NCBI GenBank assembly: GCA_963728565.1
Contig: CAVSLC010000020.1
Location: forward strand, 101,605-165,604
Source of the DNA: an uncultured delta proteobacterium
GTDB lineage: Bacteria; Desulfobacterota; Binatia; UBA9968
Direction of reading: 5' to 3'
DNA: 64,000 nucleotides
Shown here: in pieces, positions 49,235-63,922 of the stretch
How positions within the stretch are numbered: the stretch's first letter is position 1
Layout: each line of letters starts with the position of its first letter
Notes under the pieces: model-generated
Told to the model about the DNA's origin: nothing
Databases searched by the model: none
Seen by the model: only the letters and a program-made list of their open reading frames with translations
Program-made: the position numbers and the translations under genes

Positions 49235-49430
49235 CTAGCTGAGTAGCTCGATGACCATTATAAAGGCAAAAGGCGCCATGGATGTTCCTCCGCCTGACTT
49301 CAGGCACGCCTCATACATTTCGCGGTATTCCTGCCACAGTTTTTCGGGCTCCTCGTCAGGCGCCAGACAGTCTGCCGGAGAAAATTGCCGTCTGACCGAA
49401 CTGATGCCGGTGTTAAAGCGTTGAAGATGC
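49235..49430 (-). CDS. C-terminal fragment of a hypothetical protein, truncated at the junction
   Basis: HLQRFNTGISSVRRQF...VIELLS* in moderate-GC sequence, with no start of its own. Confidence 0.5.
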
Positions 49431-49918
49431 TCCGCCTGCGACCAACCAAGCTCCCGGCGACGCGCCCGCACCGTGGCCCCGAGCGCGCCGCCGCCGGGCG
49501 CGGCGATCGCGGCCGTCGGCGGCGGGGTCGCGCAGGGCCGGACCCGCGCCGCCGCCGCGCCCGGCGGGCGCGCCGGGCCCCGCGTTGCGAGCCACTCCTC
49601 GGCCTCCTTCAGGCAGAGGCCGTCCCGGCCGTCGGGCCCCACCCGCGCGTTCGTCCTGGGGTCGACGAAGTAGTCGGCGCCGAAGTCGGGCCCGCGGGGA
49701 TCGCGGGTGCGCGACCGGCGCAGCGCATAGCCGTGGCGCTGGGCGAGGGAGCGGACCCGGGCCTCCAGGTCCGGTGCGCCGCTCCCGCTCGCCGATCGGA
49801 CAGTCCCGGCGAGCGCCGCGGCGGAAGCGTCCGACAGCGCCGCTCGCTGCGCCTCGGTCAGCCCCGGGAAGGCGGCCGCCGGCGGGCGGGGCGCGGGAGT
49901 GTCGTCGGGCCGGCGCAT
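49431..49918 (-). CDS. N-terminal part of an XRE-type HTH protein, truncated at the junction
   Basis: GGAGG RBS and ATG at 49918; ends LGATVRARRRELGWSQAE, the first helices of an XRE HTH. Confidence 0.6.
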
Positions 49919-50199
49919 CGGGCGGTCCTCCAGCCGGCCGGAAGGTACGCCGCGGCGGGGCGGCACGGCCGGGCCATCGTCTGGCAGCGCGTCGCGGTTC
50001 GGGGGTCCCGGCCGCCATTACTCCGCAGCCGAGCATCGTCCGGTAAGCACGCGCATACCCGGTTCGCGCGTACATTTGTCATCGAATCGACGACCCCTGC
50101 GCCCAGGTCCCGAACATCCGTGCCCAAATATCCCCGAGGCCGCTTGCGGAAACCGCGCCCGGGGAGTCGCATCCGCCGCGGATTTGCGTCTTCCGGGGG

Positions 50200-50733: not shown

Positions 50734-51195
50734 ATGCCCAGGATCGTCGCCGACATCGTCGACGCCTACGTCTTCCGCAAGGTCAACGCGCGGATGCAGT
50801 TCCTGCTCTTGCTGCGCCGCGCCGACGCCACCTTCGGCCACTCCTGGCAGGGCATCCACGAGCAGATCGAGCCGGGCGAAACGGCCCTCGAGGCGGCCGA
50901 GCGGGCGGTGCTGAACGCGACCGGCCTGACCGTCACCGAAGCCTACTCGGCCGACTTCATCAACCAGGTCTACGACCACACCCGCGACGCGATCGTCCTG
51001 GCGCCCGTCTTCGCCTTCGCCGTGCCGCCGCGGGCTCCCGTCCACCTGAGCGAGGACTACGGCGACAGCGCCTGGTGCGAGCGCGAGGAGGCGACCGCCC
51101 GCCTGATGTGGTCCGGCCAGCGCTGGGCGATCCGCCACATCGACGAGGTGATCGGCCTCGGCGGCCCGGACGCGGAGTTCTATCGCGTCCGCTAG
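50734..51195 (+). CDS. Nudix-fold protein (NudB-like) with a degenerate Nudix box
   Basis: FLLLLR...WQ.....IEPGETALEAAERAVLNATGL; GGAG RBS. Confidence 0.8.
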   Translation: MPRIVADIVDAYVFRKVNARMQFLLLLRRADATFGHSWQGIHEQIEPGETALEAAERAVLNATGLTVTEAYSADFINQVYDHTRDAIVLAPVFAFAVPPRAPVHLSEDYGDSAWCEREEATARLMWSGQRWAIRHIDEVIGLGGPDAEFYRVR

Positions 51196-51244
51196 GCCAT
51201 TTGAGACGCGCGCCGGCGGTTCACCTGATGCCATTCCGGCGGAC

Positions 51245-51279
51245 TTGACAACCGCGCAATGAAGTAGTACATTAGTTCT
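51245..51279 (+). promoter_or_regulatory. Sigma70 promoter with an overlapping LexA-type box
   Basis: TTGACA-17 bp-TACATT; AGTAC-ATTA-GTTCT at 51266-51279. Confidence 0.75.
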
Positions 51280-51280
51280 C

Positions 51281-51567
51281 AAGCGGCACGTCCGGGATCG
51301 GGCGCGGGCCTGGGCAGCGCCTCACCGTCCCCGGGATGCCTTCCCGTCACCCACGGCCCTGGTGCTAACCCAGGTACAGAGAGCCCCTCCCCTTCGCTGG
51401 GTAGCAGCCCAATCCCTGTCCCAGTCGCGTATCTGCTCTCCGCCCCGCCGATCGGCCCGCGCCGGACGCCCTCGCCTCCGGGCCGCGCCGACCCGCTCGC
51501 CGGGGGTCAGCGATGCGAGCCCGCGGGGCCGCCTGGCGCGCAAGCGCCCGCGGCCCGCTCGGGAGGG
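51281..51567 (+). ncRNA. Candidate structured ncRNA, copy 1
   Basis: Homologous to 62414-62705 (-); compensatory substitutions in hairpins; no conserved sense ORF. Confidence 0.7.
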
Positions 51568-51639
51568 TCGAGTCCATCACGTTCTCGATCGGTTCGACAG
51601 CCTCCCCGTGCGCCCGCGGCGCCACGAACACCGCTCCCA

Positions 51640-51686
51640 GCTCCCCCTCTCTCGCGGTCGGGAGAGGGGGCTGGGGGGTGAGGGCA
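51640..51686 (+). repeat. REP-like CCCCTCTC...GAGAGGGG-GGGGTGAGGG element
   Basis: gctccccctctctcgcggtcgggagagggggctggggggtgagggca; second copy at 57327. Confidence 0.75.
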
Positions 51687-51689
51687 ACC

Positions 51690-51719
51690 CTGCGAAAACC
51701 CGCTCAAATGCGCTATACT
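51690..51719 (+). promoter_or_regulatory. Putative proximal uvrB promoter
   Basis: TATACT -10 at 51714-51719; weak -35 (ctgcga). Confidence 0.4.
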
Positions 51720-51775
51720 TCACCCCCTGACGCCCGCCTCCCGCGCGGGCTTCGCTGCCTCTGGGGGGTTCCCTG

Positions 51776-53794
<2,019 letters not shown>

Positions 53795-54041
53795 GAGCGC
53801 GGTGGTGGTTCCCGTCTGACATCGCCAGGGTGCGTTTCGTCGAACCATAGCCACGTACGATCCAACCTGATCGCCTTCGCGGCTACGCTCGGACGACTTG
53901 ATCGCCGCGAACCGGTTCGGGAGGAGTCGCGAATGGGGTTCGATCCTTGTGCCCCGCCGGTCAATCACCACCCGCCTCCGCTGGCCCTCGGCACAGCGTC
54001 GTGACGCTTCGACTCCATGCTCTCGCTGTCCGCTTCGTAGC

Positions 54042-57326: not shown

Positions 57327-57370
57327 GCTCCCCGCTCTCGCGCACGGGAGAGGGGCTGGGGGTGAGGGCA
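57327..57370 (+). repeat. REP-like element, copy 2
   Basis: gctccccgctctcgcgcacgggagaggggctgggggtgagggca. Confidence 0.75.
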
Positions 57371-57412
57371 CTCCCACGGCAGCGTGAGGAAAACGTAGGA
57401 GCAGTTCAGGTC

Positions 57413-61140: not shown

Positions 61141-62187
61141 CCGGACTGGTCGTCGCCAGCGCCAACGGCAAGGTCGGTATCAAGCAGGCGATCGCGGTCC
61201 TGCGCGGCGGCGGCAGCGCGGTCGACGCAGTCGTCGCCGGCATCCGCCCGGTCGAAGAGAACCCGGACGACCACTCGGTCGGCTACGCCGGGCTGCCAAA
61301 CTTGCTCGGCGAGGTCGAGCTGGACGCCAGCCTGATGGACGGCCGCACCCTGGCTACGGGCGCGGTCGGCGCCTTGCAGGGCTATGCGGACGCGATCGAG
61401 CTGGCGCGGCGGGTGATGGAGGAGTTGCCCCACGTCCTGATCGTCGGCGACGGGGCGCACGCCTGGCCGGCGAGGTCGGGCTCGCGCCGCGGGATCTGCT
61501 GACGCCGGCGGCCGAGCGCGATCTGGCGGACGCGTCTGGAGGAAACGGGCGGCAGCACCGAAGCCTACATGCGCCCGGGTCCGCGAGCTGGTCGGCCCAG
61601 CTGAGCCGCGACCCCGAACTGCCGAACGACCGGAGCGAGATCCACGGCACGGTCAACTTCATCGCCCGCGACCGGGACGGCCAGCTCGCCTGCGGCGTCA
61701 GCACCTCCGGCTGGGCCTGGAAGTATCCCGGCCGCCTGGGCGACTCGCCGATCATCGGCGCCGGCAACTACGCCGACGATCGCTGGGGCGCCGCCGCCTG
61801 CACCGGGCGCGGCGAGATGGCCCAGCGCCTCTGCACCGCCCACGCGTCGTGACCTTCCTGCGCTTCGGGATGAGTCTGGAGGAGTCGCTGCGGACGGCGG
61901 TCGCCGATCTCCACGCGCTGGACGACCCCTACACGTCCGAGATCAACATCGTCGCCGTCGATCGCGACGGCAACCACGCCGCCGCCGCGACGACCCCCGG
62001 CCGCACTTACGTCTACATGACCGAGGAGATGGACGACTGGGTCGAGGCCGCGCGGACGTACCTGCCGCCGGAGCCGGCGCGGGAAGGGACCGCTGGTTGG
62101 CGCGCCCTCGGGCCTACCGCCGGCTCTCGCACCGGGACCTCGGTTGCGGTCGCCGCGCCTCCCGCCATCAACGCCGCCTGCTCCTGA
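61137..62187 (+). CDS. Asparaginase-2 family Ntn hydrolase, frameshifted
   Basis: SVGYAGLPN..GEVELDA..MDG, HGTV, STSG...KYPGRLGDSPIIGAG and TGRGE; 3' end uncertain. Confidence 0.85.
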
Positions 62188-62364
62188 TCCGGGACGACGA
62201 GGACGGCGACGATCATGTCGAGGCCGTCGAAGGCGGCGAACGACGCTCCTCCCTGCGCGATGAACTGCTCGCCTTCGCAGTCGTCGCCGGAGCGGTCGGG
62301 CAGCTCGAGGTCCGCCGAGCCCGGCCGGCTGACGATCATGCAGCGAGGACAAGCGTGTGCCCAT
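62114..62364 (-). CDS. Small hypothetical protein with a CPRC motif (needs a 1-nt correction)
   Basis: Strong third-position GC bias in MIVSRPG...; removing one G after the ATG at 62364 gives MAHACPRCMIVSRPG; end uncertain. Confidence 0.4.
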
Positions 62365-62413: not shown

Positions 62414-62705
62414 CCCTCCCGATCGGGCCGCGGAGGCTGGTGCCTCAGGCGGCCCCGCGGGCTCGCATCGCAGACCCCCGGCGACCGGGTCGGCGCGGTC
62501 CGGAGGCGCTTGGCGCGTCCGGCGCGGGCCGATCGGCGGGGCGGAGAGCAGGTACGCGGCTCGGCGGGGGTTGCGGCCCGCTACGTCACGAAGGGGAGGG
62601 GTTCGCGGTAACCCGGGTGAACGCCGGGGTCTTGGGTGACGGGAGGACGGTCCCGGGACGGTGAGGCGCTGCCCAGGCCCGCGCCCGATCCCGGACGTGC
62701 CGCTT
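62414..62705 (-). ncRNA. Candidate structured ncRNA, copy 2
   Basis: Reverse complement shares identical blocks of 51, 37 and 26 nt with 51281-51567. Confidence 0.7.
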
Positions 62706-62706
62706 A

Positions 62707-62740
62707 AGAACATTTGTATATACGATCGGGCGATTGTCAA
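62707..62740 (-). promoter_or_regulatory. Sigma70 promoter with an overlapping LexA-type box
   Basis: TTGACA-16 bp-TACAAA on the minus strand; AGAAC-ATTT-GTAT on the plus strand at 62707-62719. Confidence 0.7.
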
Positions 62741-62988: not shown

Positions 62989-63922
62989 TTACGGTTTCGT
63001 CTGCCAGTTGGGATCGAAATCCTCGGCGGGATTGCTGGTGAGCCGTTTCTGACCGCCGCCAATGTTGTTCATGACGTAGATGTTGGTGTTGCCATTGCCG
63101 GTATTGCGGTCGCTGGTGAAGGCGATCTTGCTCCCATCGGGCGACCAGGCGGCGTCGAAGTCCTCCGCCGGATGGTTGGTGAGATTGGCCTGGCTGCTGC
63201 CGTCGGCGTTCATCACGTAGATCTCGGCGTTGCCGTCGCGATGGCTGGTGAAGGCGATCTGCTGCCATCCGGCGACCAAGCGGCGTCGAAGTCGAGCGCC
63301 GGGTTATTGGTGAGATGGCTGGCTGCTGCCGTCGGCGTTCATCACGTAGATCTCGAAGTTGCCATCGCGCGGTGGCTGTGAAGGCGATCTTGGTCCCGTC
63401 CGGCGACCACGTCGGGTGCAGCGTCGTCTCGGCGTTGTTGGTGAGATTACGGGATGCCGCTGCCGTCGGCGTTCATCACGTAGATTTCGCGAGTCGCCGT
63501 CGCGGTCGCTGGCGAAGGCGAGCTTGGTGCCGTCGGGCGACCAGACGGGATAGCGGTCGTCGCGACGTGGGCGGTATGTTGGCCAGGTCGCTGCCGTCGG
63601 CGTTCATCACGTAGATCTCAAAGTCGATGCCGTCCGGTCGCTGCGTGAAGGCGATCTTGGTCCCGTCCGGCGACCAGGCGGGTTCGATGTCGTTCGCGGG
63701 GTTGTTGGTGAGCCGCTTGGTCTTCTTGCGCTTCTTGCCCAGTTCGCCCGTCGCCGTCATCGTGTAGATGTCGGTGCTCCCGGCCCGTTCGCTCCCAAAG
63801 GCGATGCGGCGGTTTTTGCGCCGGCACCACCGCCTCCGCGGTTGGCAGCATCGCGCCCAGCCAGCCGCCGGTCAGCAGGAGCAGGACGAGCAGTCGCGGG
63901 ATCGCATCGCTGTGTGTCGCAT
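62989..63922 (-). CDS. Secreted TolB-like PD40 beta-propeller protein, multiple frameshifts
   Basis: Repeated AWSPDG.KIAF.S.RDG..EIYVMNADGS..NLT units; signal-like N-terminus; GGAG RBS. Confidence 0.85.

Follow-up and report, generated by a model that had tools for sequence, protein, structure and literature searches.

Two paralogous copies of a GC-rich non-coding element, one upstream of uvrB: a candidate SOS-type promoter-leader module

Small RNAs linked to LexA are known from several bacteria. In Escherichia coli, IstR-2 is a LexA-controlled small RNA, and an SOS-linked small RNA of Klebsiella is said to regulate cell division. The 6C small RNA of Actinobacteria, in turn, is characterized by C-rich loops. 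In Mycobacterium tuberculosis, LexA ChIP peaks are located at the small RNAs MTS1082 and MTS2823, as a passage of PMC3381160 reports. The LexA motif of Gram-positive bacteria such as Bacillus subtilis and M. tuberculosis is the Cheo box, GAAC-N4-GTTC, according to a passage of PMC3323433.

The element described here occurs twice, as copies A and B, in a window of 64,000 nucleotides (the whole stretch of DNA that was analysed). Like the LexA-controlled small RNAs, both copies are short, non-coding and placed behind a promoter with a claimed LexA site, their transcript being presumed. Contrary to those RNAs, they are longer (~290 nt), they form two diverged paralogs and both face a downstream gene; there is no sequence or Rfam relation between the two types, and A and B are known from sequence alone. 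With the SOS promoters of the Gram-positive type they share a site over the -10/+1 region that resembles a palindrome and whose right half is a perfect GTTC, and one of the copies is found upstream of uvrB. However, the left half of the site is GTAC in A and ATAC in B, the consensus used for comparison is that of other organisms and may not be that of the host, and the start codon is 495 nt away from the site in A and 366 nt in B, whereas in Gram-positive SOS promoters the two are near each other. The structured 5' leaders and riboswitch attenuators represent another point of comparison, since A and B are promoter-proximal, conserved, GC-rich and untranslated, have a stable hairpin before a gene, and contain conserved blocks predicted to be able to pair alternatively; unlike these leaders, they have no U tract, no ligand candidate and no Rfam family, and only two paralogs exist. 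Lastly, G-rich ribosome-binding sites could be bound by their conserved C-rich run CCCCUCCCC in the manner of the 6C small RNA; size and architecture differ from 6C, however, the consensus fold predicts this run to be base-paired, and no match to an Rfam family reaches threshold.

The duplicated unit and its promoters

The two copies and their promoter elements are as follows.

51245-51567, plus strand: copy A as a whole (promoter and non-coding part), from BLASTN and nhmmer
62740-62414, minus strand: copy B as a whole (promoter and non-coding part), from BLASTN and nhmmer
51281-51567, plus strand: presumed transcribed non-coding part of copy A (287 nt, 77% GC), homologous to copy B, with flat codon-phase GC and without Rfam or Pfam match
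62414-62705, minus strand: presumed transcribed non-coding part of copy B (292 nt, 78% GC)
51245-51273, plus strand: promoter of copy A (TTGACA, 17 nt, TACATT), called by the promoter scan with 10/12 matches
62711-62740, minus strand: promoter region of copy B (TTGACA, 16 nt, TACAAA), read from the sequence and alignment
51267-51278, plus strand: LexA (Cheo-box)-like site of copy A, GTAC-ATTA-GTTC, with one mismatch to GAAC-N4-GTTC
62708-62719, minus strand: LexA-like site of copy B, ATAC-AAAT-GTTC, with two mismatches to GAAC-N4-GTTC

A BLASTN search of the whole assembly (4.53 Mb) with copy A matches A and B only, at 82-84% identity (E 6e-85 to 6e-87), and nhmmer recovers the same two copies and nothing more. 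Both programs thus agree with the first-pass annotation, which had recognized the two stretches as homologous and called the element multicopy; repeated it is, but with two copies only in the assembly. These copies are inverted and lie 11 kb apart, and across the presumed transcribed ~290 nt they are 84% identical, with 47 of 292 alignment columns differing (42 substitutions and 5 gap columns). The limits of the unit are sharp: homology extends from the -35 box to the terminal GGGAGGG and so ends eight bases past the 3' hairpin, with identity in 25 of 37 columns of the promoter, and the flanks on both sides are at the background level of 33-34% (17/50 columns identical upstream, 33/101 downstream). 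The proposal that homology begins at the transcription start therefore has to be corrected, as it begins at the -35 box. In agreement with what had been noted before, the ends of the unit lack terminal inverted repeats, and no target duplication is seen in the flanks, which are unrelated to each other.

Identity between the copies is mosaic. It reaches 100% in alignment columns 1-51, drops to 69% in columns 52-154, returns to 100% in columns 155-191 and is 85% in columns 192-292; the identical blocks, whose positions had been given exactly, are 51281-51331 (51 nt), 51433-51469 (37 nt) and 51510-51535 (26 nt). When the 47 differences were placed randomly by permutation, a longest run of at least 51 columns arose with P = 0.0027, and the three longest observed runs were jointly reached in 0 of 20,000 permutations, so that random placement of the differences fails as an explanation. 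Since 1-nt shifts break the uvrB gene behind copy A where the contigs of other organisms are missing a base, the 5 gap columns may have arisen in assembly, an origin for which the 42 substitutions are too numerous.

Both copies are non-coding. GC content by codon phase is flat over the whole copies (0.79/0.74/0.78 and 0.76/0.80/0.78), and the phase spread in 90-nt windows is 0.00-0.20 inside them and up to 0.27 at their edges (in A, the 3' edge), compared with 0.4-0.77 in windows of the same size in the NUDIX gene, uvrB and the small ORF behind copy B. Given that the frameshifted uvrB keeps its coding signal, assembly indels do not account for the absence of this signal in A and B. The open frames of the element have no Pfam match at E <= 10, and the longer ORFs none at 0.01.

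The promoter of copy A is the sole sigma-70-like site in 51100-51900, where 0.1 would be expected from shuffles; being also the only one between the NUDIX gene and uvrB, it leaves uvrB without any other recognisable promoter. The promoter of copy B is not called by the scan because the last base of its -10 hexamer is an A. The LexA-like box of A overlaps both the -10 hexamer (51268-51273) and the start site, and B shows the same layout by alignment. In the window, the relaxed LexA-like pattern is found 3 times against 1.4 expected, and is thus not rarer than chance, and the boxes of A and B share ancestry, so that they do not count as independent evidence for LexA control. Layout and uvrB context fit such SOS control and the box is degenerate; judging by the sequence, we would put regulation of A and B by LexA at about an even chance.

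Neighbouring genes and origin of the contig tail

Each copy precedes a gene on the same strand, which is uvrB in the case of A and an orphan small ORF in the case of B, and another hairpin is found between A and uvrB.

51776-53850, plus strand: uvrB, starting 209 nt after copy A, with a UvrB-like N-terminus, an NCBIfam UvrB equivalog match (E 7e-80) at positions 289-441, and Pfam UvrB and Helicase_C
62013-62339, minus strand: small ORF, beginning 75 nt past copy B, of 108 codons as assembled, its true end being uncertain
51643-51670, plus strand: 12-bp hairpin in the gap that separates copy A from uvrB (dG -23.6 kcal/mol, z -2.47), with a second copy at 57329-57358, outside the A/B homology

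The identification of uvrB, a classic SOS gene, is secure. The gene is split across at least three frames by 1-nt shifts, and uvrB contigs of other organisms are missing one base at about 51870, 52270, 52338-52341 and 52403-52408, which suggests 1-nt insertion errors in the assembly rather than a true pseudogene. The small ORF behind copy B has the codon-phase GC typical of a minus-strand gene over 62120-62330; it has no homolog at E <= 0.001 and no Pfam or NCBIfam family, and it may not be a real gene. No homology is shared between the stretches of 209 and 75 nt that separate the two copies from the downstream start codons. Counted from the presumed transcription start, uvrB begins at +495 and the small ORF at +366, positions compatible with a 5' untranslated leader in both cases.

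Two other types of repeats are present in the segment. The 12-bp hairpin repeat (CCCCCTCTCTCG / CGGGAGAGGGGG type), together with the G-rich tail behind it, occupies 51643-51690 between A and uvrB and 57329-57375 between pepP and efp, and its pattern, with up to 3 mismatches, has 4 matches (two sites, on both strands) against 0.03 expected. Tandem repeats of ~135-141 nt, with 76-85% identity, lie at 63014-63712 near the contig end and coincide with the PD40 (WD40-like beta-propeller) repeats of a minus-strand gene upstream of B. The genes of this part of the contig (NUDIX, uvrB, aroQ, pepP, efp, xseA, AIR-synthase-like, asparaginase and PD40-repeat genes) are core housekeeping ones, with no transposase among the neighbours, and the segment is not a mobile island.

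The window has a GC content of ~55% up to ~49,440 and of ~70% from there to the contig end (14.6 kb). Around the junction (49,300-49,600), GC rises from ~52% to ~83% within 150 bases, and a minus-strand ORF (49235-49966) spans it. The assembly elsewhere has 53-56% GC, and its high-GC stretches are found only at or near the ends of five contigs, namely this one and four others (C6, C18, C21 and C25), in which they are probably chimeric joins to other organisms. The RecA of the MAG is 98-99% identical to proteins named Candidatus Binatia. The MAG's own lexA (contig C19, region of about 239,780-239,800 and 240,652) has TACTGAAAATATATTCAGTA, a CTG-N10-CAG-like palindrome, in front of it and a weak RecA-like (ImuA-like) gene behind it, and this LexA-box type differs from that in the high-GC tail. 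A uvrB belonging to the MAG itself lies on another contig and shares 69% identity with that of the tail, and the contamination of the MAG amounts to 5.84%. Taken together, the GC step, the second uvrB, the other LexA-box type, the Binatia RecA and the contamination make the 14.6-kb tail most likely a chimeric join to another organism, with indel errors. A useful result is that features of the tail, such as the duplicate of the single-copy uvrB, the other LexA box and the frame-shifting indels, should not be ascribed to the organism of the MAG.

The source of the tail was sought by means of its genes. The DNA of the tail uvrB is 69-77% identical to everything compared, and is uninformative in this respect. 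A 3.6-kb query covering pepP-efp-xseA had no match at E <= 1e-120 in 400 genomes of the class, a threshold too strict for ranking, and at E <= 1e-10 it matched five genomes, in pieces of 66-76% identity only. For the AIR-synthase-like protein, ESM Atlas points to Chloroflexota, the named sequence matches are to Gaiellaceae and Thermomicrobiales at 62-65%, and a 94%-identical partial protein is encoded on a 20.9-kb ENA contig. Chloroflexota had been suggested as the ground for homolog searches; by its RecA, though, the MAG is a Candidatus Binatia one, and the element lies in the foreign tail.

Predicted RNA structure and search for relatives

Four local features of the presumed RNA can be distinguished.

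51523-51558, plus strand: 3' hairpin of copy A (12 pairs; dG -29.4 kcal/mol, z -2.09; 8/200 shuffles fold equally well)
62425-62455, minus strand: 3' hairpin of copy B (dG -25.5 kcal/mol, z -2.67; 3/200 shuffles fold equally well)
51358-51374, plus strand: small hairpin CCUGG/CCAGG, with one compensatory change in comparison with B (CCCGG/CCGGG) and a local z of only -0.94
51384-51396, plus strand: C-rich island CCCCTCCCCTTCG, a conserved 13-column run within the region of 69% identity, complementary to the 3'-terminal GGGAGGG

The 3' hairpin is the sole solid structural element among those predicted for A and B. Between the copies it differs by two compensatory pairs (GGCGC/GCGCC in A, GAGGC/GCCUC in B) and a changed loop. 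These double changes, like the single one in the small hairpin, are real and had been correctly described. No U tract follows the hairpin in either copy, and the terminator scan calls nothing at either of them, which favours read-through.

Evidence for a conserved fold of the whole element is thin. The minimum-energy z of the complete copies (-0.38 for A, -0.90 for B) is not better than that of shuffles, and the reverse strands give -0.48 and -1.20. The two-sequence consensus contains 86 pairs, of which 75 are invariant, 6 have one-sided changes and 5 two-sided changes, and none is broken; at least five compensatory pairs were found in 12 of 300 column shuffles, and the consensus energy was reached in 3% of them. 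When the substitutions were re-drawn at the same columns, P was 0.06 for the compensatory count and 0.004 for the consensus energy. The reverse-complement alignment also yields five compensatory pairs, so that covariation does not decide the strand, nor between RNA and DNA hairpins. Covarying stems, which had been put forward as evidence, are therefore statistically borderline (P 0.04-0.06) and equalled by the reverse strand, and the differences do not cluster in hairpins as had been stated, since 31 of the 47 differing columns fall outside the predicted pairs and 16 within them.

The minimum-energy folds of A and B differ from each other. The two longest invariant blocks (1 and 2) are mutually complementary, and block 2 is predicted to pair with block 1 in the minimum-energy fold of A and with downstream sequence in the consensus fold. 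A 5' domain of ~185 nt had been proposed: its long-range closure is present as complementarity of the invariant blocks, and the closing helix CGTCCGG/CCGGACG is predicted in one copy only, its pair probability being about 0.85 for A and 0 for B. The consensus fold joins the C-rich island to columns 286-292 instead of leaving it exposed.

No known RNA family accounts for the element. Rfam 15 cmscan of the whole window gives no match at gathering thresholds, tRNA and tmRNA included, in line with the known-RNA signatures previously reported as missing. Relaxing the search to E <= 10 over 51200-51750 gives 9 matches (seven to animal microRNA models and one each to a plasmid antisense RNA and an lncRNA model) of 14-23 bits against thresholds of 55-100, which are chance matches. 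With Rfam below gathering thresholds throughout, a known RNA family was rejected.

The search for relatives was also extended to other genomes and contigs. BLASTN against 41 relatives of the MAG returned only GC-rich matches of 23-46 nt, of which those at L004, L005, L007 and L008 lie in coding sequence. Among 401 genomes from the class of a Solirubrobacteraceae MAG, 37 had matches of 30-85 nt to query positions 169-320, on both strands and none of them full-length, and 401 sampled Actinomycetota genomes had no match to the element at E <= 1e-7. An exact 20-base word found 12 loci in JGI metagenome contigs, five of them dehydrogenase gene starts and the others unrelated; an exact 22-base word found seven loci in GTDB genome contigs, none alignable beyond a short stretch around the word except L031, a weak 68% match to the element over ~130 nt in which the word lies at the 3' end of a gene. 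Two words of the element gave no match in viral contigs, plasmids and phages gave none either, and nhmmer over the collected loci added nothing new. As these searches consisted of genome samples (41, 401 and 401) and exact words, homologs are to be regarded as not found, rather than as absent. The term family, which had been applied to the element, is not borne out, as there are only two copies, with no homolog in anything searched.

A JGI metagenome contig of 1296 nt (L026) contains, at bases 264-320, 32 nt that are 94% identical to the start of the element; this stretch folds back (ACGTCCGGG ... CCCGGACGT) and seems non-coding, and the similarity ends by ~57 nt.

Public sequencing runs match only small shares of the stretch (at most 0.13). 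In the reads of four runs, conserved parts of uvrB are covered, from many organisms, and a few near-identical short contigs cover the NUDIX gene; over the element they give scraps, one of them explained by dehydrogenase-like words, and these bear neither way on transcription. A literature search by title and start of abstract found no paper describing an RNA upstream of uvrB.

Competing readings of the element

The reading that we tentatively favour, at somewhat less than an even chance, is that A and B are paralogous copies of a duplicated, self-contained, non-coding promoter-leader module of the SOS type. Such a module would consist of a sigma-70-type promoter, a Gram-positive-type LexA-like site over -10/+1 and ~290 nt of GC-rich untranslated RNA ending in the conserved 12-bp hairpin. 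The RNA would form the first stretch, next to the promoter, of a long 5' leader that is induced by damage and shares a transcript with the following gene (uvrB or the small ORF), and would act in cis on stability, processing or read-through; an RNA of ~280 nt may also accumulate, provided that transcription ends at the 3' hairpin or the hairpin protects the RNA. This module is favoured because uvrB has no other recognisable promoter and the 3' hairpin no U tract. It also agrees with the real substitutions of B, which retain the common fold better than re-drawn ones (energy P 0.004), with a 3' hairpin locally stabler than shuffles in both copies, whose pairing is kept through two double changes, and with the minus-strand coding periodicity that follows B. 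The duplication with its sharp limits, the mosaic identity, the lack of coding signal, the promoter of A and the position before a securely identified uvrB are shown and speak for the module, whereas transcription, LexA control, co-transcription and a function of the RNA are inferred. Against it stand the degenerate box, the uncalled promoter of B, whole-element folds no better than shuffles, and the disagreement between the minimum-energy folds, with a long-range helix in A only. In addition, the extra hairpin at 51643-51670 could end the transcript before uvrB, the segment carries indel errors and is probably a chimeric contig tail, and the small ORF after B has no homolog. A more elaborate version of the leader, distinctly improbable in our view, would make it a so far undescribed structured RNA common to a damage-inducible uvrB and the gene of an unknown small protein, acting as a riboregulator atop LexA control in an uncultured high-GC soil lineage, in which the complementary invariant blocks switch pairings and the C-rich island masks G-rich sites.

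A, B and their surroundings can also be read in other ways. It is possible, though unlikely, that the copies are two paralogous stand-alone small RNA genes, each running from the LexA-type promoter to the 3' hairpin and producing a ~280-nt RNA that would act in trans, for instance through the C-rich CCCCUCCCC island on G-rich ribosome-binding sites. Homology that spans exactly promoter to hairpin and then falls to background is what a duplicated gene unit would show, and the stable hairpin with its two compensatory pairs, the unequal and non-homologous distances to the start codons (209 and 75 nt) and the conservation of the C-rich island inside the variable middle point the same way, as does the existence of LexA-linked small RNAs in other bacteria, reported in part of PMC3381160. 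However, of the promoter and intrinsic terminator that would define such a gene, we found a promoter for A and hairpins for both copies, the U tract being absent and the terminator scan empty; moreover, both copies face a same-strand gene, which in the case of uvrB has no other recognisable promoter, no homologs appeared in the searched genomes and contigs, and the consensus fold engages the C-rich island in pairs. With a similarly low probability, the copies would be a relic without RNA function, left when a promoter region underwent segmental duplication, the identical blocks being due to patchy gene conversion between these inverted copies and the compensatory changes to template switching in palindromes. 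A relic would be consistent with only two copies, inverted and 11 kb apart, with no homolog anywhere searched, with a whole-element fold z near zero, with borderline compensatory counts equalled by the reverse strand, and with the disagreeing minimum-energy folds of A and B. It is harder to reconcile with limits of the unit that match functional landmarks (the -35 box and the hairpin end), with the mutual complementarity of the two longest identical blocks, which conversion alone does not predict, and with the substitutions that keep the common fold (P 0.004).

The remaining two explanations have very little in their favour. One is a small intergenic repeat, mobile or dispersed and resembling MITEs or REPs, with an outward-facing promoter: the element is indeed repeated and intergenic, is rich in GC and contains many internal inverted repeats, and another small repeated hairpin exists in the segment (51643-51670, 57329-57358). 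Yet there are two copies only, the unit termini are free of inverted repeats and the flanks of target duplications, no transposase is found among the neighbours, and plasmids, phages and viral contigs have no match, so that we consider this very improbable; a MITE or other transposable repeat was rejected, terminal inverted repeats, target-site duplication and many copies all being missing. We give hardly any credence to a decayed or mis-assembled coding fragment, such as the 5' end of a short-chain dehydrogenase gene, even though the first conserved block reads G-T-S-G-I-G-R-G in one frame and five of the 12 metagenome loci with the 20-base word are the starts of genes encoding G-G-T-S-G-I-G-R-G. 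In BLASTN these loci score 55.4 and 61.1 bits, more than almost any of 200 shuffles that keep the seed (maxima 56.8 and 51.1), a control that preserves base composition only, and the indel errors of the segment could conceal a reading frame. On the other side, no 90-nt window of A or B has the codon-phase GC signal that the frameshifted uvrB retains, the open frames have no Pfam match even at E <= 10, the relevant frame of B has no start codon after the promoter, and the promoter abuts the motif, leaving no space for the first beta-strand of the enzyme. A protein-coding gene or dehydrogenase fragment was rejected on the flat phase GC, the missing Pfam match and the missing start codon in B. 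The block at 51287-51320, read as the nucleotide-binding motif G-T-S-G-I-G-R-G of short-chain dehydrogenases, is probably a coincidence of GC-rich words.

The description of A and B as a structured RNA family with covarying stems is thus an over-reading, and the element, genuine as sequence, is a modest orphan candidate. As the promoter-leader module that we favour, and if real, it would be an addition to the known LexA-linked small RNAs and Cheo-box SOS promoters, unrelated to them. Should its RNA be real and damage-induced, it would represent an RNA layer in the SOS response of a poorly known high-GC soil lineage, and the small ORF behind copy B would be a second, unannotated SOS-linked gene.
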